Both the position numbers and the translations under genes were made by a program. This document shows, in pieces, positions 36,455 through 57,392 of a stretch of DNA of 64,000 nt (within the stretch, counting starts at the first letter, position 1; each line of letters opens with the position of its first letter). A model generated the notes under the pieces. It did not search any database. It had not been told where the DNA came from and saw only the letters and a list, made by a program, of their open reading frames with translations. Origin of the DNA: Alphaproteobacteria bacterium (GTDB taxonomy: Bacteria; Pseudomonadota; Alphaproteobacteria; JAUXUR01); the NCBI GenBank assembly GCA_030696155.1, contig JAUYSY010000022.1, positions 4,172-68,171 of the forward strand, written 5' to 3'.

Positions 36455-36747
36455 TCACTTATTCTCAAGATTCAAATCCCTATAAAAATTTTCATGAGCG
36501 CCCAATTTAAAAAGTACAATTTCGTTTTCATCTACTTTCCAAATATACGCCAAAAGTGTTAAAAACTTTTCCATTTTAAACTTAAAGACACACACTTGCG
36601 ACAAATCTGCTTTCTTTTCTTGGCCAATAGATGGATTTTTAATAATCTCTTTAACCGCCTTATCAAGATCTTTTTTTTTGATTCAAATAGAGCTTCTTTA
36701 TACTCTTTTGAAAGCTTAGCGTTTGCTTGATTTTCATCAGGATTCAT
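36455..36747 (-). pseudogene. RelE/ParE-family toxin gene disrupted by a 1-nt frameshift in an A9 homopolymer
   Basis: Frame 1 gives MNPDENQANAKLSKEYKEALFESKKK… and then terminates. Restoring one A in the run at 36671..36679 yields a 97-aa RelE/ParE-like ORF (…DLDKAVKEIIKNPSIGQEKKADLSQVCVFKFKMEKFLTLLAYIWKVDENEIVLFKLGAHENFYRDL…). Confidence 0.6.
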
Positions 36748-36961
36748 TAAATTGATATTCTGTTATAAGCCCTAATTCATCTTCCTCAATACTCAGTAAA
36801 ATACCTTTAATATCATCAAAAGAAAGATCTGGATTTTCTTCAGCAATTTTACCAATACGTGCGCAATAAGCAATTTGCTTCGATATAGACCTCTCATAAC
36901 CACTTGAATATGCTTTAGCTTCTTTAAAAATATCATCGGGAATATTAACAGCGACAGACAT
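36737..36961 (-). CDS. ParD-like / ribbon-helix-helix-type antitoxin
   Basis: A 75-aa product (MSVAVNIPDDIFKEAKAYSSGYERSISKQIAYCARIGKIAEENPDLSFDDIKGIL…) that overlaps the toxin-pseudogene start by 11 bp, which is a typical type II TA layout. Confidence 0.55.
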   Translation of the reverse strand: MSVAVNIPDDIFKEAKAYSSGYERSISKQIAYCARIGKIAEENPDLSFDDIKGILLSIEEDELGLITEYQFNES

Positions 36962-37329
36962 GATACTTACCTCTATATAATGTAATACACAACATATTGT
37001 TGTGATTCGCAACATTCTAAAAATTAATCACATTAACTAAATTTAATCAATTTTTCAGCTTCAATATCAGAAATGTCTTTATTTTCTTTAATAAATGTTT
37101 GAATTTTAGATAATGCCATCTCATAAAGAAGCTTGATCAAATGCAAAAAGTTGATTCTGTGATATTAAAAATAATGTATACATTAATAGGATTCTTTTAC
37201 TCATAATGCGTTTTTTTGTTTAATATTTTATGCTAATACACATTTACGTTTAATTAATTGATAAAGATTTTTTTTACAAAAACCACAAGAAGCATAAGCT
37301 TCTTGCGGAACATTTTTTGTATTTTTTCT

Positions 37330-40470: not shown

Positions 40471-40544
40471 GGCAAATTCGTTGTCAGGTCTGCGCATTCC
40501 AGTGCTCATGTACTTTAAGTACATTCCGCGCCGGTTCTCGTCCT
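40471..40544. repeat. family E palindromic element (copy 1)
   Basis: …GCGCATTCCAGTGCTCATGTACTTTAAGTACATTCCGCGCCGGTTCTCGTCC; its reverse complement recurs at 44361..44432. Confidence 0.55.
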
Positions 40545-40636
40545 TTCTAGACTTTGCCTCATAATCTAGGCGCTTGTCCAGAATCTATTTAAATATAAGA
40601 AGAACACGTGAACATTAAAAAAAAAGGGAAAATAAA

Positions 40637-42658
40637 ATGGCCGCGATCGAAGCAAAATTAGGCATTAAAACTCAAAATGAAAAAGATTTAATTATTTCCA
40701 TTGATAATTTATTAACTAAAGGGCAATTTTTTATCGCTCAAGATCTTTCACAATCTGCCATTGAACAATTCCCTGATAATATAGAATTTAAAAAATTAAA
40801 AGCCAGAGCATTATTAGAAGCAGGTGCCTTAGAAGAAGCACGCGCACTTATCGAACCATTAAGTTCGCATTCTTTATTAGATCGGGATCTTCTGCTTAAT
40901 ACCGTCAACAAACTTAGTGGTTTTTTTGAATCTTTCAAAGATTTCGATAAAAATGCACCTAAATGGGAAACCCTAAAAGGTAGTGCCGAATTATCAATAG
41001 CCTTAGCCCAAACAGGTGAAATGGCCCAAAATGCCTTATCCGTTGACATTGAATCTTTGAGTTTACTAGCGCACATATACAAGAATATCTGGCTTCGAAG
41101 CCAAAAAGATGAACATTTTCAGCGTCTTCACAAAACATATCATCAAGCCTATCAGCAAAGCCCCCAATTATCCTTGGGTGTTCAAGCTGCCATATCTAGT
41201 TTTGTGTCAGGTGAAAAAGAAAAAGCGCTTGATATATTGCGTGAATCTCTTGATAAAACAAGCTTAACCCAAGAAAATGCATCTGATTATTGTTTGGCCT
41301 CTCTTTTAATGGGCGATCAGATGATGGCCGAAAAAGCCATTAAACTTAAATCCTCTTTTTATGAGAAAAATTTTTCTGAACGCACTAAAATGCGACGTGA
41401 AATTAAATTACTCGAAAAATATAAAATTAAAATTCCCTCTATTGTCCAAGATATTTTAAAGCCGCCCGTTATTGTTGGATTTACAGGCCATATGATTGAT
41501 GCGCCGAATAGAAGCGCGCCTCGTTTCCCCGCTTTTATCGAACCTCAAGTAAAAATTAAAATGCAGGAAGTATTAAGCGATATTAAAGCAGAAATTGGTT
41601 ATTCTTTAGGCGCTTCAGGCGGCGACATTATTTTTCTTGAAACAATGCTTGAACGCGGTGGCGAAATCAATATGATCATGCCATTTGCAACGCATGATTT
41701 TATCGAAGCCTCCATTCGTTTCGCAGGTAATTCATGGGTAACGCGGTTTAACCATTTGTTAAAATTAACCCATAATTTAATTTTTGCAACTGAAGAAAAT
41801 TATTTAGGCGATGATGATTTATTTCAATTCGCAGGGTTATTATTATTTGGCGATTCAATATTGCGCGCGCAAACATTGGAAGCCGAGCCCTATTTATTAG
41901 CGCTTTGGGATGGCAAACAATCAGGTCTTGTGGGCGGCACATCTGACCTTATTAACAAATGGGACAATAAAGAAACGCTCAAAATTATTGATCTGAGTAA
42001 AATTCGAGAAAATACAACGCCACCCAAATATTCAAGCATTGTCCATGAATACAAGCCAGAACTCGTTATCAATGAAAAAAGACGCGTTATTAAAACAATG
42101 CTTTTTTCAGATGTCGTTGGTTTTAGTAAATTACAAGAACATCATGTCCCTGGTTTTATTGCTTTCATGCAAGATGTCGCCAAACATCTTTTTGATTCAA
42201 GTCAAAATCCTTCTTTTATCAACACCTGGGGGGATGCTATTTTTGCCGTTTTGGATGACGCGCAATCAATGGCAACTTACGCGCTCGCCCTTAAAGAAGC
42301 CTTACATAAAGCAGGCTTTAAAGATTATGGATTGCCAACAAAATTATCTTTGCGCATCGGCCTTCATGCAGGTCCTGTTTACGAAGACAAAGATCCCATT
42401 ACGGGACGTGTCAATTATTATGGTGGACACGTAAACCGTGCGGCGCGCATCGAACCCGTGACAGTGCCAGGTCGCGTTTACGCGAGTGAGCAATTTATTT
42501 CACTTTTAGCATCAGAAGAAGCAGGTCTTCAATTACGCGCTAAAGAAAAAGGTGAACATATTGATTTTCCATGGATGTATGAATATGTAGGCACAATGTC
42601 ACTCGCTAAAAAATTCGGAGAGCAAAAAATTTATCATTTAACCGAACGTGAAATTTGA
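40637..42658 (+). CDS. three-module signalling protein: an N-terminal TPR-like helical region, a central Rossmann-like domain of uncertain family, and a C-terminal class III adenylate/guanylate cyclase
   Basis: The C-terminal cyclase homology domain (FSDVVGFSKL…, WGDAIFAV, GLHAGPV…GGHVNRAARIE). The central segment has GFTGHMIDAPNR…GASGGDIIFLE, which is reminiscent of LOG/DprA/SLOG-type Rossmann motifs. Confidence 0.7.
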   Translation: MAAIEAKLGIKTQNEKDLIISIDNLLTKGQFFIAQDLSQSAIEQFPDNIEFKKLKARALLEAGALEEARALIEPLSSHSLLDRDLLLNTVNKLSGFFESFKDFDKNAPKWETLKGSAELSIALAQTGEMAQNALSVDIESLSLLAHIYKNIWLRSQKDEHFQRLHKTYHQAYQQSPQLSLGVQAAISSFVSGEKEKALDILRESLDKTSLTQENASDYCLASLLMGDQMMAEKAIKLKSSFYEKNFSERTKMRREIKLLEKYKIKIPSIVQDILKPPVIVGFTGHMIDAPNRSAPRFPAFIEPQVKIKMQEVLSDIKAEIGYSLGASGGDIIFLETMLERGGEINMIMPFATHDFIEASIRFAGNSWVTRFNHLLKLTHNLIFATEENYLGDDDLFQFAGLLLFGDSILRAQTLEAEPYLLALWDGKQSGLVGGTSDLINKWDNKETLKIIDLSKIRENTTPPKYSSIVHEYKPELVINEKRRVIKTMLFSDVVGFSKLQEHHVPGFIAFMQDVAKHLFDSSQNPSFINTWGDAIFAVLDDAQSMATYALALKEALHKAGFKDYGLPTKLSLRIGLHAGPVYEDKDPITGRVNYYGGHVNRAARIEPVTVPGRVYASEQFISLLASEEAGLQLRAKEKGEHIDFPWMYEYVGTMSLAKKFGEQKIYHLTEREI

Positions 42659-42869: not shown

Positions 42870-43376
42870 ATGAAAACAATGCAAAAAATAACGACTTTTT
42901 TACCTGAGATTAAACTTGTTGGTATTACAACAAGGACGAATAATAAAGCTATGTTTGAACGCGATCCTTCAATTAATAAAATTGCGGCATTGGTTCAAAA
43001 ATATTTTCATAATGGTTTATCGGCAAAAATTACCAATCGTCAAAAACCTGCTACAACCTTTTGTGTTTATACGGATTACGAATCAGACCATCATGGCGAT
43101 TTCACTTATTTTATTGGTGAAGAAGTAAGCTCGTTTGACAATATTCCAGATGAATTCACACCATTAACCCTACCAACCCAAAATTATGCAAAATTCACGA
43201 ATGGCCCAGGACCTATGCCTGATATTTGCATTGATCTATGGCAACACATCTGGCAAATGAATCCCAAAGATTTTGGTGCGCCAAGAAGCTATCAAACAGA
43301 TTTTGAAATTTATGATGAACGCGCACATGACCATAAAAATGTCGTTTTTGATGTTTTTATTGGGATTGATGCATAA
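42870..43376 (+). CDS. GyrI-like / SbmC-like small-molecule-binding domain protein
   Basis: 168 aa with the layout typical of GyrI-like domain proteins (beta-alpha-beta-beta duplicated; conserved aromatic and Glu positions). This is a weak, motif-level call. Confidence 0.45.
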   Translation: MKTMQKITTFLPEIKLVGITTRTNNKAMFERDPSINKIAALVQKYFHNGLSAKITNRQKPATTFCVYTDYESDHHGDFTYFIGEEVSSFDNIPDEFTPLTLPTQNYAKFTNGPGPMPDICIDLWQHIWQMNPKDFGAPRSYQTDFEIYDERAHDHKNVVFDVFIGIDA

Positions 43377-47614: not shown

Positions 47615-48010
47615 TTATTTCACCCTAATCGCATTACCGGCCGCTTTGATACTAATGCTAGAACCAGTGACCTTACTCACATTCACATCTATCGCCATAT
47701 CACCATAATTTTCAGCTGCAATTTGGAGTTTATCGATAGGGCCTGAAAGCGTTGCTATATTCCCCGAAGAACTAGTCTGAACACTAGAAGAATCAATATC
47801 TTGAACATTGACGTTTTTGCTTGCATCACCATAGCTTATCATGGGATCATCAGCAGAATCACCAGAATTAACAACAATAACTGAATTCCCTGGAGGCGTA
47901 GCATTAGCTGAATTCACTGAATTTAAAGGATTGAAAGAACTTGCATCAATAGCAATAACGTTACATGAAAAAAAAGCTGCAATAACAGCCCACATGGAAA
48001 TGTTTCTCAT
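47615..48010 (-). CDS. small secreted curlin-repeat-like (Gly-Asn beta-solenoid repeat) protein, paralog 4
   Basis: A signal peptide then repeated units of the type S-x-(V/I)-x-(V/I)-x-A-x-G-N-x-(V/I) (e.g. SSISIKAAGNAIRV). Confidence 0.45.
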   Translation of the reverse strand: MRNISMWAVIAAFFSCNVIAIDASSFNPLNSVNSANATPPGNSVIVVNSGDSADDPMISYGDASKNVNVQDIDSSSVQTSSSGNIATLSGPIDKLQIAAENYGDMAIDVNVSKVTGSSISIKAAGNAIRVK

Positions 48011-48135
48011 ATCTTCCTACAGGATTATTTATTTGTGTTGCTAAGATGAGCGTAACATAACATTTTTAAAATAAAAAATTAAATACTAAAAAATATAACA
48101 TCATAATTGAGTCAGTTTATCAAATTTATTATTTA

Positions 48136-48474
48136 TTATCTAAAAGTTATAGAATTTCCAATTGCATTAACCTGAATGTATGAGTTACTCACATTCGAAA
48201 CTTGAGCGTCAGCTATCATGTTGCCGTAGCTTTGCATGAAAAAAACTGAATTTTCAACATTACCACTTAAGTTTATCGTATTACCCGCAGCGCCAACCTG
48301 AACAAATGATGCATCAATACTATCAATTTTTGACGTTGCACTTGCATTACCATAATTCATCTGCTCAATACTTAAATTGTTTTTGACAAAAGGATCAGCG
48401 TTTGAGAAAGAAGGCATTCCCGTTACAAACACAAGAGCCAGGATATAAATCATTTTCTTCATTTCTTCCTCCAT
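48136..48474 (-). CDS. small secreted curlin-repeat-like protein, paralog 3
   Basis: Signal peptide and the repeats SFVQVGAAGNTINL and SYIQVNAIGNSITF. Confidence 0.45.
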   Translation of the reverse strand: MEEEMKKMIYILALVFVTGMPSFSNADPFVKNNLSIEQMNYGNASATSKIDSIDASFVQVGAAGNTINLSGNVENSVFFMQSYGNMIADAQVSNVSNSYIQVNAIGNSITFR

Positions 48475-48788: not shown

Positions 48789-49193
48789 TTATCTCAATGT
48801 AACAGCATTACCAGCTGAGATCACACCAACACTAGAAGCAGTTACACCACTCACTATTCCCAAAGCCGTATTGTCACCATAGCTTTCCGCTGCCATGGAA
48901 AAGTTTTCAACCGTACCTTCAAGAAGCACAGTGTTACCAGCGGCACCCACATCAACTGTTGAAGAATCAATATTTTCAATCGTTGCATTCGTTAATGAGT
49001 TACCGTAGTTTTTAAGCGTTAAGTCGATATTTGTTTTGACATTACTGATAGGATCCCCACCCCAGTCACCACCAAAATCTTCTGAAAAAGTTTCTTCAGT
49101 CATTGGTACTTCAGCAGGTATTTCTTCTGCATAAGCTTTAATTGTGAACACAGTGATTGCAAATGCAAAAGCGATCATTGAAAATTTTTTCAT
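48789..49193 (-). CDS. small secreted curlin-repeat-like protein, paralog 2
   Basis: 134 aa, nearly identical to paralog 1; repeats STVDVGAAGNTVLL and SSVGVISAGNAVTL. Confidence 0.5.
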   Translation of the reverse strand: MKKFSMIAFAFAITVFTIKAYAEEIPAEVPMTEETFSEDFGGDWGGDPISNVKTNIDLTLKNYGNSLTNATIENIDSSTVDVGAAGNTVLLEGTVENFSMAAESYGDNTALGIVSGVTASSVGVISAGNAVTLR

Positions 49194-49242: not shown

Positions 49243-49647
49243 CTATCTCAATGTGACAGCGTTACCAGCGGAGATCACACCAACAGTGGAAGCCGTTACA
49301 CCACTCACTACTCCAAAAGCCGTATTATTGCCATAGCTTTCAGCCGCCATTGAAAAGTTTTCAACCGTACCTTCAAGAAGCACAGTGTTACCAGCGGCAC
49401 CCACATCAACTGTTGAAGAATCAATATTTTCAATAGTTGCATTCGTTAATGAGTTGCCGTAGTTTTTAAGCGTTAAATCAATATTTGTTTTGACATTACT
49501 GATAGGATCCCCGCCCCAGTCACCACCAAAATCTTCTGAAAAAGTTTCTTCAGTCATTGGTACCTCAGCTGGAACTTCTTCGGCATAAGATTTAATTGAA
49601 AAAAGACCAAGTGCGAGTGCGAACGTGATTAATGATAAACTTCTCAT
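49243..49647 (-). CDS. small secreted curlin-repeat-like protein, paralog 1
   Basis: 134 aa; signal peptide MRSLSLITFALALGLFSIKSYA; the same repeat units. Confidence 0.5.
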   Translation of the reverse strand: MRSLSLITFALALGLFSIKSYAEEVPAEVPMTEETFSEDFGGDWGGDPISNVKTNIDLTLKNYGNSLTNATIENIDSSTVDVGAAGNTVLLEGTVENFSMAAESYGNNTAFGVVSGVTASTVGVISAGNAVTLR

Positions 49648-55006: not shown

Positions 55007-55053
55007 GTAAGCCAATGCGACTAATAAATGGTTGCTCAAAACGAGGTAAATCG

Positions 55054-55695
55054 ATGTTTAGAAAATTTGCACTTTACACCATTATTCTTTTTTCGTATGC
55101 GAATCTCACTTTTGCGGGTAACGCTTCTAACGAAGCAGAAAAACATGTAATTGAACAAGAAAGTTATGCAGCAGCTATTGAAGAAGAAAATAACGCGCAT
55201 CTGTTTGAACAAGAAAATCATGCAATGGCTATTGAAGAAGAAAACGATGAAATGGATGGAAACTATGCTTCTTATTATTTGGACAACATAATTAATACTA
55301 CATTAACTCATTACCCACAATATCGCATCACTTTGGATTTAATGCTTGATTTTTACTGTCATGCCAATGAATTACTAAATGTTAATTATACTCAAAATGA
55401 AAACAATAGATTTTTTGAAGCTTTTGTTGATTTAGCCCTTAAAGCAAACAATCGCGCGCAAAACCTCATAATAGAGATACCTCGCCACTCTGGTATTTTT
55501 AATATTTTTATCAATAATAATAATGCATTTATAAATACTATGTTACGCTCTCCGACTTCATTTGGATGTATTGGCAATGATCGTACTATTCGATTGCTTA
55601 TAAACAGAATACAAAGAAAAGTGAATGCTCAACGTAATCCAATCCAACGTAATCGGGTGCAACGTAGCCATAACGTACTCTTTCCAATCAACTAA
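55054..55695 (+). CDS. small secreted protein, paralog family member 1; the start is taken at the internal ATG preceded by a conserved RBS
   Basis: Signal peptide MFRKFALYTIILFSYANLTFA; a conserved core (…LDLMLDFYCHANELL…, …AQNLIIE…); internal HVIEQE/FEQEN repeats; upstream ACGAGGTAAATCG-ATG. Confidence 0.55.
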   Translation: MFRKFALYTIILFSYANLTFAGNASNEAEKHVIEQESYAAAIEEENNAHLFEQENHAMAIEEENDEMDGNYASYYLDNIINTTLTHYPQYRITLDLMLDFYCHANELLNVNYTQNENNRFFEAFVDLALKANNRAQNLIIEIPRHSGIFNIFINNNNAFINTMLRSPTSFGCIGNDRTIRLLINRIQRKVNAQRNPIQRNRVQRSHNVLFPIN

Positions 55696-55758
55696 ACATA
55701 CCTTTGCCGATTAAAAACATACGAACAAGCTATAATCAAGGCGTATTTTTAATTCGTT

Positions 55759-55793
55759 ACCTCTCCTCCCGCAGCAACCCCGCGGGATCCAAA
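55759..55793. repeat. family A REP half-site
   Basis: CCTCTCCTCCCGCAGCAACCCCGCGGGATCCAAA downstream of paralog 1; it may also act as its terminator. Confidence 0.5.
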
Positions 55794-56044
55794 AGATAAT
55801 TTAATTAAAAAAAAACTATTAACAACTTGATATAAAAAGATATTTTTAATTTTGACATAGAACTAACTAATATAATTGAAAAATCAAAGCAATTTAACTG
55901 CTTGATAAATAAAAATAATATTGCTTTATCTAATTTTAATAAATCTAACAGATCAATAAAATTATTTTTTATATAATTAACATACACTTAATAAAAACTA
56001 TATTTTTTTATCGAATTTTTTCAGAGATTTATTAAAAAAATGAA

Positions 56045-56073
56045 TTGCAATGTAGGTCAGTTTATATTATTAA
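56045..56073 (+). promoter_or_regulatory. sigma70-like promoter of paralog gene 2
   Basis: TTGCAA, a 17-bp spacer, then TATTAA, in a conserved GAATTGCAA…TAAGTAAG block. Confidence 0.5.
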
Positions 56074-56128
56074 GTAAGTGTATATGACTAATAATCATAT
56101 TGATATTCATTCAACACAAGGTAAAAAA

Positions 56129-56653
56129 ATGTTCAAAAAATTTGCGCTTTTCACCATTATGCTTTTCTCCTATACAAATCCTATCATTGCTGAGGATATG
56201 CAAGAAAATAGGGAACATGTTAATATAGAAATTGAAGATGAGGGCGAAGAACTTTCACTAGATGTAATGGAAAGGATTATTACGCAATTCACAGGATATC
56301 TAGAAGCTAAATTCGATCAACGTCACACAACCACTTTCGGTGAAGTGCTGGATTTTTTTCAAGACGAAATAGAAAACCATGCTCATAGATATTTGCTCCA
56401 TTTCTATATAAATGGTTTAGAAATTGATGAAAATTATGGTGATGTTGAAGCTATTATTGAATTAGGTTTAAAAGCTGCAGAAATAGCTCAAGATAATATA
56501 GACAGACGCCCAGAAACCAAAGCAGCTCTAGAAGACTTTATTAAAAGAAATATAGAATTTCTTCAAAAACTTATTGATGAATTTGCACAAAGAAGAAGCC
56601 ACGTAAGCTCTTTTGCTGCTCTACAACAAAAATTACATCACTTACAACAATAA
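56129..56653 (+). CDS. small secreted protein, paralog family member 2
   Basis: Signal peptide MFKKFALFTIMLFSYTNPIIA; a conserved core (…VLDFFQDEIENHAHRYLLHFYINGLE…, …AAEIAQDNIDRRPETK…); an AAGGTAAAAAA-ATG RBS context. Confidence 0.55.
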   Translation: MFKKFALFTIMLFSYTNPIIAEDMQENREHVNIEIEDEGEELSLDVMERIITQFTGYLEAKFDQRHTTTFGEVLDFFQDEIENHAHRYLLHFYINGLEIDENYGDVEAIIELGLKAAEIAQDNIDRRPETKAALEDFIKRNIEFLQKLIDEFAQRRSHVSSFAALQQKLHHLQQ

Positions 56654-56663
56654 TACCTTTTTA

Positions 56664-56700
56664 TCTTTCGGGGGCATCACCCCTGAAAGATTCTTTAATT
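56664..56700 (+). terminator. rho-independent terminator
   Basis: TCTTTCGGGGG-catca-CCCCTGAAAGA (an 11-bp stem with one G·U pair) followed by a T-rich tail. Confidence 0.65.
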
Positions 56701-56909
56701 CAATATAAAATATAAATTTTAAGCTTTAAACATAAAAAATCATGTAACTTATTGTTTAATTAGAAAAATTTTTAATCTGAGCAAATATTAAAAATTATAT
56801 ATTAAAGCACTCACAAAAATATTAAAAATTTTTTTCATAATTAACATATATTTAACCTAAGAAAAATTTATTTTATATTATTTACTATTGTATTTACTTG
56901 AAAAATGAA

Positions 56910-56938
56910 TTACAAACCATCATTACACATGTTACTAA
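56910..56938 (+). promoter_or_regulatory. sigma70-like promoter of paralog gene 3
   Basis: TTACAA, a 17-bp spacer, then TACTAA, in the conserved GAATTACAA…TACTAAGTAAG block. Confidence 0.5.
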
Positions 56939-56987
56939 GTAAGTATACATGTCCTATAAAATTATGTAAATCAAACGAGGTAAACCA

Positions 56988-57392
56988 ATGTTCAAAAAAT
57001 TAGCCATTTACACCATCATTCTTTTTTCATATGTAAGCCCCTCTTTTTCACTTACAGACGAAGAAATAGCTGCGGCTGACATCGCTGCATATAAATTTAT
57101 TGAAAACTTAGAAACAACGCTTGCCCCAAAACACGCTTGGACATTAGCACAAATGCTTGATTTTTTTAGCGATAAAGATGGCAATAATGCTCATCAAATT
57201 ATGGCAAATTTTTATTTAGATGCATTAGAAGACACTACACCACATAGTTTTAATCTAGCTTTTATTAAATTAGCATTAGCAGCTTCTGAAATTGCACAAG
57301 ATAACATCAAGGGAAGACCCTATACTAAGAACGACTTAAGCAAATTTATTGAAAACAATAAAGAGCTTATTAAATTTGTTTTAACGCACTAA
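56988..57392 (+). CDS. small secreted protein, paralog family member 3
   Basis: Signal peptide MFKKLAIYTIILFSYVSPSFS; a conserved core (…MLDFFSDKDGNNAHQIMANFYLDALE…, …ASEIAQDNIKGRPYTK…); the RBS ACGAGGTAAACCA-ATG. Confidence 0.55.
   Translation: MFKKLAIYTIILFSYVSPSFSLTDEEIAAADIAAYKFIENLETTLAPKHAWTLAQMLDFFSDKDGNNAHQIMANFYLDALEDTTPHSFNLAFIKLALAASEIAQDNIKGRPYTKNDLSKFIENNKELIKFVLTH

Follow-up and report, generated by a model that had tools for sequence, protein, structure and literature searches.

A solo gene encoding a TPR-S, SLOG-like and class III cyclase protein in an alphaproteobacterial core chromosomal segment, and its TIR-linked relatives

Among the described systems closest to the gene considered here, type VIII Thoeris includes ThsI, an effector bearing tetratricopeptide repeats (TPR) that is activated specifically by canonical cyclic ADP-ribose (cADPR) made by a TIR protein, whereas binding of cADPR by its TPR is only presumed (preprint 10.64898/2025.12.03.692087). 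A part in TIR-mediated signalling has been predicted for this sensor TPR. A related system, BcTir/BcTpr, has also been studied (preprint 10.1101/2023.05.26.542521). The SLOG domain of ThsA senses a variant of cADPR, SLOG domains as a whole include N-glycosidases as well as sensors of cADPR variants that lack catalytic activity, and in the TIR/DrHyd/SLOG class the nucleotide is contacted by the loop that follows strand 1 (PMC9503650). Here, we describe a gene in a stretch of 64,000 nucleotides (the window) from a metagenome-assembled genome (MAG) of Alphaproteobacteria (GCA_030696155.1, contig JAUYSY010000022.1, positions 4,172 to 68,171 of the forward strand). Its product of 673 amino acids (aa) combines three domains, namely TPR-S (1–262), a SLOG-like Rossmannoid domain (270–455) and a class III cyclase (483–673), and we regard it, with a confidence slightly above even, as a ligand-gated class III cyclase descended from Thoeris-like immune modules, now acting as a stand-alone sensor/cyclase or in trans.

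A 673-aa protein ending in a cyclase domain had been proposed for positions 40637–42658 in a preliminary description of the window, and the open reading frame (ORF) matched it exactly. The product is 100% identical to the GenBank MAG protein MDP3531980.1, whose public annotation reads only [quoted passage not shown]. The best matches of the homologue search had E = 0, and the ratio of nonsynonymous to synonymous substitutions (dN/dS) against an 88%-identical orthologue (locus L005) was 0.065, at a dS of about 1.1, near saturation; for these two reasons, the ORF corresponds to a real gene and not to a chance one. A pseudogene or decaying remnant was likewise ruled out by that ratio and by intact motifs throughout. 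No signal peptide, transmembrane or hydrophobic segment was found in the 673 residues (maximum 19-residue Kyte–Doolittle hydropathy of 1.17), and the protein is predicted to be soluble and cytosolic. The gene and the layout of its product are as follows:

40624–40629 (+): ribosome-binding site AAGGGA, 8 nt 5' of the ATG, from sequence reading
40637–42658 (+): complete gene, 673 codons plus stop, ATG start, from the ORF call
40637–41422 (+): N-terminal TPR-S domain, aa 1–262, 14 helices, from Pfam, AlphaFold2 (AF2), Foldseek and a clade profile hidden Markov model (HMM)
40859–41026 (+): clade-specific helical insert of about 55 aa in TPR-S, aa ~75–130, from the alignment and split HMM matches
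41444–42001 (+): central SLOG-like Rossmannoid domain, aa 270–455, from the AF2 model and Foldseek
42002–42082 (+): poorly conserved linker, aa 456–482, from homologue identity
42083–42655 (+): class III nucleotidyl cyclase homology domain (CHD), aa 483–673, from Pfam PF00211 and PDB matches

Identity along the linker was 7–22% in most homologues (0–50% over all of them), compared with 40–70% in the flanking domains. Measured against the homologue P0003, identity was 35% in the TPR, 64% in the central domain and 73% in the cyclase, the TPR being the fastest-evolving part. Promoter and terminator scans around the gene gave background level only. Within the 180 bp that separate mmsB from the cyclase gene lies a perfect 8-bp palindrome (ATGTACTT-T-AAGTACAT, window 40508–40524), a possible operator or hairpin.

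For the central part of the protein, the preliminary description had suggested a Rossmann-type module of the SLOG/DprA/LOG kind, quoting two motifs that were located at residues 281–298 (GFTGHMIDAPNRSAPRFP) and 325–335 (GASGGDIIFLE). No match to Pfam, NCBIfam or PDB sequence models was obtained for residues ~265–470, nor did the named SLOG family models (LOG, DprA, YpsA/DUF1273, LSDAT, TPALS, STALD) give any Pfam match at E ≤ 10 with the query and 17 homologues; since none of them matches, this SLOG clade appears to be unmodelled in the sequence libraries searched. The AF2 model of the domain, with a predicted local distance difference test (pLDDT) of 89.9 and a predicted TM-score (pTM) of 0.86, showed a six-stranded alpha/beta Rossmannoid fold. 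The Foldseek search against the PDB at E ≤ 1e-3 returned DprA, YpsA, ShosA, type I/II LOG, the LOG-like TM1055 and TT1887, with MoCo-carrier proteins appearing just above that cutoff. DprA gave the best E-value (2e-7), with the proteins of H. pylori and S. pneumoniae both matched, and B. subtilis YpsA the best TM-score (E 6e-7, TM 0.59/0.71, root-mean-square deviation 4.1). The matches thus correspond to SLOG structures, with no assignment to an unrelated family, and the model supports a fold of the SLOG superfamily type, as had been proposed. Conservation in this domain was calculated on 233 non-identical family sequences and, together with the model, marked the following elements:

41486–41530 (+): loop after strand 1, G284-H285-M-I-D288...R296-F297-P298, predicted to contact the nucleotide (G284 100%, H285 92%, D288 100%, R296 88%, F297 99%, P298 96%)
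41612–41641 (+): A326-S-G328-G-D330-I-I-F333-L-E335 after strand 2, like the Gly-rich loops of DprA/LOG (A326 93%, G328 100%, D330 97%, F333 97%, E335 99%)
41735–41746 (+): near-invariant W367 (100%) and R370 (99%)
41933–41941 (+): G433-G434-T435 loop after strand 5, at the position of the LOG PGGxGT motif (G433 97%, G434 94%)

When mapped onto the strands of the AF2 model, Gly-rich or polar loops were present after strand 1, strand 2 and the penultimate strand, and the near-invariant polar residues H285, D288, R296, D330, E335 and R370 sit in the loops that bind nucleotides in SLOG, LOG and DprA proteins. The resulting family signature is FTGHMxD...PRFP, AxGxDxxFxE, WxxRF, GGT.

The C-terminal domain matched PF00211 over residues 487–632 (E 4e-14, 53 bits against a Pfam cutoff of 21.9), and its sequence matches in the PDB were the catalytic domains of soluble guanylyl cyclases (sGC) and bacterial adenylyl cyclases, including 3et6 and 3mr7, in agreement with the cyclase end initially described. 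Its functional residues were located by aligning it with 3et6 and with 130 cluster representatives of the family:

42110–42112 (+): metal-binding Asp492 (FSDVVGF), aligned to the sGC motif, in 130/130 relatives
42221–42235 (+): N529-T-W-G-D533, with Asn529 at substrate position 1 and Asp533 as the second metal Asp (INTWGD against VETIGD in 3et6)
42353–42355 (+): phosphate-binding Arg573 (RIGLHAGP), in 130/130 relatives
42413–42415 (+): Asn593, substrate-specifying position 2, aligned to the Cys of sGC beta in 3et6
42434–42448 (+): transition-state Asn600 and Arg604 (HVNRAARIE), from the family alignment

The second metal-binding Asp533 was kept in 129 of the 130 relatives and Arg604 in all of them, with Asn600 found in 80 and mostly Ser or Thr in the others. 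The metal-binding and transition-state residues whose absence would have spoken against a genuine cyclase were thus all present, and because Asp492, Asp533, Arg573, Asn600 and Arg604 are in place, the domain looks catalytically competent. ATP-specific class III cyclases carry a Lys/Asp specificity pair and GTP-specific ones Glu/Cys (Ser, Thr). Neither pair was found here, where Asn529/Asn593 follow the family norm: position 529 was Asn in 95 relatives, Glu in 16 and Lys in 4, and position 593 was Asn in 85 of 130, with Asp absent from its eight commonest residues. The inspection for ATP versus GTP suggested in the preliminary description hence located the pair, but being the non-canonical Asn/Asn it points to neither of the two as the nucleoside triphosphate (NTP) used. 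The mycobacterial class III cyclase Rv0386 is reportedly active with Gln/Asn in the specificity positions. Both proteins show amide residues replacing the canonical Lys/Asp, although Rv0386 belongs to another clade and another domain context, and we limit the analogy to suggesting that an Asn/Asn pair would not preclude activity.

The helical, TPR-like N-terminus of the preliminary description was also recovered. Pfam reported TPR_19 and TPR-S (PF20308, 28.7 bits against a cutoff of 27.6), together with a sub-threshold MAP3K_TRAF_bd, and the AF2 model of residues 1–262 (pLDDT 89.2) was an all-alpha TPR superhelix of 14 helices, whose top Foldseek matches were all TPR proteins. ASK1 was absent from these top matches, and the structure does not separate TPR-S from generic TPR; as Foldseek confirms the fold and not the subtype, the assignment to TPR-S rests on homology. 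In this respect, PF20308 was found in 14 of 18 homologues, with relatives scoring 60–77 bits, and an HMM made exclusively from sequences of the query clade matched strong TPR-S relatives at E 7e-19 to 8e-35. The helical insert of ~55 residues is exclusive to the query clade, shorter family members being without it. TPR-S is the sensor TPR of NAD+-signal systems and of the ASK signalosome.

Searches with a profile of the central domain detected 6177 cluster representatives (clusters at 50% identity) at E ≤ 1e-3 and 1606 at E ≤ 1e-30. As judged with local HMMs, the TPR, central and cyclase domains followed one another in this order in ~138 of the top 165 proteins. A scan of genome contigs with a single protein as query gave no matches; seeded instead with a trimmed alignment of the central domain (A4), the full alignment being too diverse, it revealed at least 576 loci encoding the domain (one genome per species). 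A word-indexed search showed, in addition, that stand-alone central-domain proteins of ~185–210 aa are abundant, with 120 homologues, all of them without Pfam annotation. Most family members came from MAGs of lineages taken as free-living, for example Cyclobacteriaceae, Betaproteobacteria, Acidobacteriota and Spirochaetota. A phage origin was ruled out, as 2.9 million viral contigs yielded one weak match to the family. From its distribution in these databases, the TPR-S/SLOG/cyclase architecture is widespread and cellular.

In this family, TPR-S and the SLOG-like domain form a constant core, whereas the flanking modules vary between an active CHD, a dead CHD and no CHD. A Bacteroidota clade (loci L020–L034 etc., e.g., L021 9407–11119) has a degenerate CHD without the metal aspartates (hhalign 98.7%), and P0015 carries a similar one. 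Proteins P0016–18 have no cyclase and instead an N-terminal extension of ~440 aa, whose start looks DRHyd/TIR-like by eye only. Finally, an N-terminal RyR domain (PF02026, E ~1e-32) precedes TPR-S, SLOG and cyclase in several long members, such as L080 (8858–11176), L085 (8930–11236) and P0011; cADPR is a classical modulator of eukaryotic ryanodine receptors. Such exchangeable modules around a constant TPR-S and SLOG pair are the pattern expected of a sensor core with swappable outputs.

In order to know the genomic context of the family, ORFs were called at 89 relative loci, their neighbours clustered, and representatives of the clusters annotated. The largest neighbour cluster (30 loci) was set aside, as it consisted of generic TPR proteins joined by single linkage. 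At about one third of 80 inspected loci, genes for TIR and/or nSTAND1 proteins were no more than five genes away from the focal gene, in arrangements that look operonic. In the Spirochaetota loci L015, L025 and L048, a ThsB-like TIR gene starts 4–10 bp 3' of the cyclase gene, and in Betaproteobacteria the order SIR2-TIR, nSTAND1, cyclase was found with gaps of 0–50 bp and in at least two unrelated flanks (L003/L004 versus L006, L051 and L087). In Bacteroidota, where the clade with the dead CHD often has this setting, the focal gene comes after a pair of nSTAND1 genes and a conserved gene for a 267-aa protein without Pfam match, and in 11 loci it is followed by a calcineurin-like phosphoesterase gene on the other strand. 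Patatin genes abut family members in L001/L002 (L001 6619–10034), L008 (6846–9998) and L092 (4847–6561), down to a minimal pair of a patatin gene followed by a 186-aa stand-alone SLOG-like gene. The linked TIR proteins gave ThsB-like TIR matches. Among the neighbours of these relatives, no recurrent cluster of proteins binding cyclic nucleoside monophosphates (cNMP) was found, and the TIR partners tested had no cNMP-binding domain, which argues against a flow from cyclase to TIR of the Pycsar/Pucsar type and favours one from TIR to sensor. One Acidobacteriota MAG (L074, 1–1458) encodes a fusion of TIR and a Ser/Thr protein kinase, divergent beside a TPR-S/SLOG/cyclase gene.

The locus in the window was of a different kind. 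The whole stretch is a core chromosomal segment, including the dcw cluster through ftsZ, fatty-acid oxidation genes, mmsA/mmsB, sdhCDAB, rpsT, dnaA and dnaN, and the cyclase gene sits between mmsB and a gene for a Cass2/GyrI-like small-molecule-binding protein (42870–43376 (+), E 6e-25), whose adjacency is not conserved in relatives. No homologues of TIR, SIR2-TIR, nSTAND1, patatin or calcineurin-like proteins were detected among the ORFs of the 64 kb, nor any neighbour with a cNMP-binding domain. Fusions of this type had been considered characteristic of nucleotide-signalling conflict systems, and this holds for the family, with its TIR, SIR2-TIR and nSTAND1 operons, but not for this solo gene among core genes. 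In a rough neighbour-joining tree of the central domain, the window copy grouped with the 88%-identical L005, with L001/L002 and with L010, beside three Holosporales MAG sequences; all of them are solo, except for a divergent patatin in L001/L002, and the TIR- or nSTAND1-linked members were scattered over the remaining branches, the adjacent one of Marivibrio among them. The adjacency to mmsB was kept in L005, and dN/dS against this orthologue was low in all three domains (TPR 0.08, SLOG 0.05, CHD 0.04). Because of this synteny and these ratios, the orphan copy is vertically inherited, functional and under strong purifying selection.

The mechanism that we favour would start with the TPR-S superhelix and the adjoining SLOG-like domain, which together would sense a small ligand derived from a nucleotide, most plausibly an NAD+- or ADP-ribose-derived signal of the kind produced by TIR proteins. 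Ligand binding would promote or re-orient the dimerisation of the C-terminal cyclase domains and, as class III active sites form at the dimer interface, this would lead to the conversion of NTP into 3',5'-cNMP, or to NTP consumption. Signalling would then run from the TIR product to TPR-S/SLOG and from there to the cyclase. The family would have originated as a component of TIR/SIR2/nSTAND1 (Thoeris-like) anti-invader systems, and operon-linked relatives would provide a Thoeris-like output by relaying the message or by depleting NTP. The copy in the window belongs to an alphaproteobacterial/Holosporales sub-clade in which the linked partners would have been lost, and the protein is likely to act either alone, as a second-messenger sensor/cyclase, or in trans with partners encoded elsewhere.

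Several points weigh against this proposal. Its ligand class, product, signalling direction, activation step and oligomeric change are all steps that we infer, and the search for unlinked TIR or cNMP-binding genes covered the 64-kb window of the MAG. About two thirds of the inspected loci, this one included, lack a TIR or STAND neighbour, a count limited by the many short contigs. The TPR-S score of the query itself is marginal with respect to its cutoff, with ASK1 not a top structural match. The two-gene TIR plus cyclase systems show no visible downstream cNMP receptor, and their cyclase may be an NTP-depleting effector rather than a relay. Finally, acidic, basic and His residues of the SLOG-like domain are so strongly conserved that catalysis would fit equally well, and a catalytic domain of this type is the main rival explanation: it would act as an N-glycosidase in the manner of LOG, or process derivatives of ADP-ribose, and so generate or remove a nucleotide signal, with the cyclase as a second activity in the same pathway. 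Conservation of 99–100% at D288, E335, W367 and R370, and high at H285 and R296, is typical of active sites, and stand-alone versions of the domain (~185–210 aa) are abundant, one of them directly 3' of a patatin gene. We consider such a bifunctional enzyme unlikely nonetheless, as the best structural matches belong to clades not known as enzymes (DprA, E 2e-7; YpsA, TM 0.59/0.71), the LOG matches in Foldseek are weaker (E 3e-4 or worse), the LOG motif PGGxGTxxE is matched only in part (GGTSD), and no sequence model of a catalytic SLOG family matches the domain.

The core chromosomal location beside mmsAB, sdhCDAB and the GyrI/Cass2-like gene, the lack of linked partners also in the closest relatives, and the plain public annotation would fit an ordinary physiological adenylate cyclase, in which the TPR serves regulation by protein–protein contacts and the central domain acts as a spacer, structural or for dimerisation, unconnected with NAD+-derived signals or immunity in this bacterium. 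However, the protein lacks the Lys/Asp pair of ATP-specific cyclases, its TPR belongs to the TPR-S sensor subtype, and conservation of the SLOG pocket residues equals that in the operon-linked relatives (SLOG dN/dS of 0.05); a mere spacer would not be so constrained, and we find this explanation rather improbable. Very improbable, in our view, is the secreted or translocated effector of the preliminary description, which would raise cAMP or cGMP in a eukaryotic host. In its favour, the MAG of origin is alphaproteobacterial and sister sequences occur in Holosporales MAGs, Holosporales are likely intracellular symbionts, and bacterial cyclase toxins exist. Against it, the protein has neither a signal peptide nor a transmembrane segment (maximum hydropathy of 1.17, as above) and does not resemble known cyclase toxins, all its matches being class III regulatory cyclases; to our knowledge, the known toxins are class II and activated by calmodulin or actin. 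The same architecture is, moreover, widespread in lineages taken as free-living and sits in intracellular defence operons, and a regulatory TPR-S and SLOG module suits the sensing of signals in the cytoplasm of the bacterium itself.

The three domain superfamilies were known already, and so was the way in which conflict systems combine TIR, TPR-S, SLOG and cyclase; the exact architecture may have been catalogued by Burroughs & Aravind 2020 (J Bacteriol). Literature searches found no characterised family member, and the accessible literature has no description of this SLOG clade that the models miss and its signature, of the Asn/Asn cyclase, of a cyclase as TIR-linked output or of the solo lineage under purifying selection. 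If our favoured ligand-gated cyclase is correct, the family would join in one polypeptide the two main messenger chemistries of bacterial immunity, NAD+-derived signals and 3',5'-cNMPs, and would add a large SLOG clade (6177 cluster representatives, at least 576 species genomes) with a clear signature open to mutagenesis; the solo copies of the alphaproteobacterial/Holosporales sub-clade would show an immune sensor domesticated for physiological or host sensing. The Asn/Asn pair makes the cyclase product worth determining. As a long shot, the family could be an undescribed Thoeris-like output in which a TIR-made NAD+-derived signal leads to cNMP synthesis or NTP depletion, possibly, given that pair, from a non-purine substrate, with the orphan copies perhaps repurposed to sense ADP-ribose-type messengers of a eukaryotic host. 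Were the protein simply another regulated adenylate cyclase, the value of this analysis would be a better annotation only.

Elsewhere in the window, three tandem paralogues on the reverse strand (19082–20944, 21383–23314 and 23609–24385) share near-identical, signal-peptide-like N-termini (MF.YRSIY..LG..LWCGQAIAAPAHVAVLGWGSLI.NPG...). A RamC_N kinase-like region forms the C-terminal part of the one at 19082–20944, Pfam matched nothing in the others, and the group at 19082–24385 may represent an expanding family of secreted proteins. In the surroundings of rpsT-dnaA-dnaN, a 134-aa signal-peptide protein is duplicated (48789–49193 and 49243–49647 (-)), and two further groups of small, paralogous, secreted-looking ORFs were noted at 47615–48474 (-) and 55015–57392 (+). 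A ParD-like antitoxin gene (36737–37015 (-), PF11903, E 5e-13) had no obvious partner toxin called beside it. Finally, an ORF for an SNF2-family helicase at the window edge (62931–63959 (-)) matches the SNF2-rel_dom profile of Pfam from position 131, so that it is truncated or its start was miscalled.

Compared with known systems, the protein shares with the cyclases of Pycsar and Pucsar (PycC, PucC) a class III fold employed in anti-phage signalling and non-canonical base-specifying residues. However, PycC and PucC mostly consist of a cyclase alone, with a cNMP-binding TIR or transmembrane effector as partner, whereas the protein in the window has a large TPR-S and SLOG sensor and no cNMP-binding neighbour, and the TIR partners of its relatives, unlike those of Pycsar, have no cNMP-binding domains. 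Its PADLOC match to PycC was weak (17 bits, E 6e-4), the generic Pfam cyclase score being far stronger, and for this reason we do not regard it as a Pycsar cyclase. With DprA, YpsA and LOG (5mll, 2nx2, 3uqz, 5zbk), the central domain has in common the Rossmannoid fold and the Gly-rich loops after strands 1, 2 and 5, but sequence similarity to them is undetectable by HMMER and the family signature is its own. ThsA of type I Thoeris, a SIR2 and SLOG protein that senses 3'cADPR, likewise fuses a SLOG-type domain to an enzymatic output, and family members are genomically linked to TIR and SIR2. The differences from ThsA lie in the SLOG clade (with no STALD/ThsA match in Pfam and ThsA not a top structural match), in an output that is a cyclase and not an NADase, and in the additional TPR-S domain. 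Finally, ThsI and BcTpr, which combine a DRHyd/CMP-hydrolase-like domain with TPR-S, share the sensor TPR (TPR-S/MAP3K_TRAF_bd) with the protein in the window, which differs from them in having no DRHyd effector domain or adjacent TIR, and instead an extra SLOG-like domain and a cyclase output. Proteins P0016–18, if their start is indeed DRHyd/TIR-like, would resemble ThsI with a SLOG domain added. The arrangement that defines Thoeris types, a TIR gene adjoining that of the sensor/effector, was absent from the window and present in relatives L015, L025, L048, L003, L006, L051 and L087, which in this way, as ThsI and BcTpr do, are encoded beside TIR genes.

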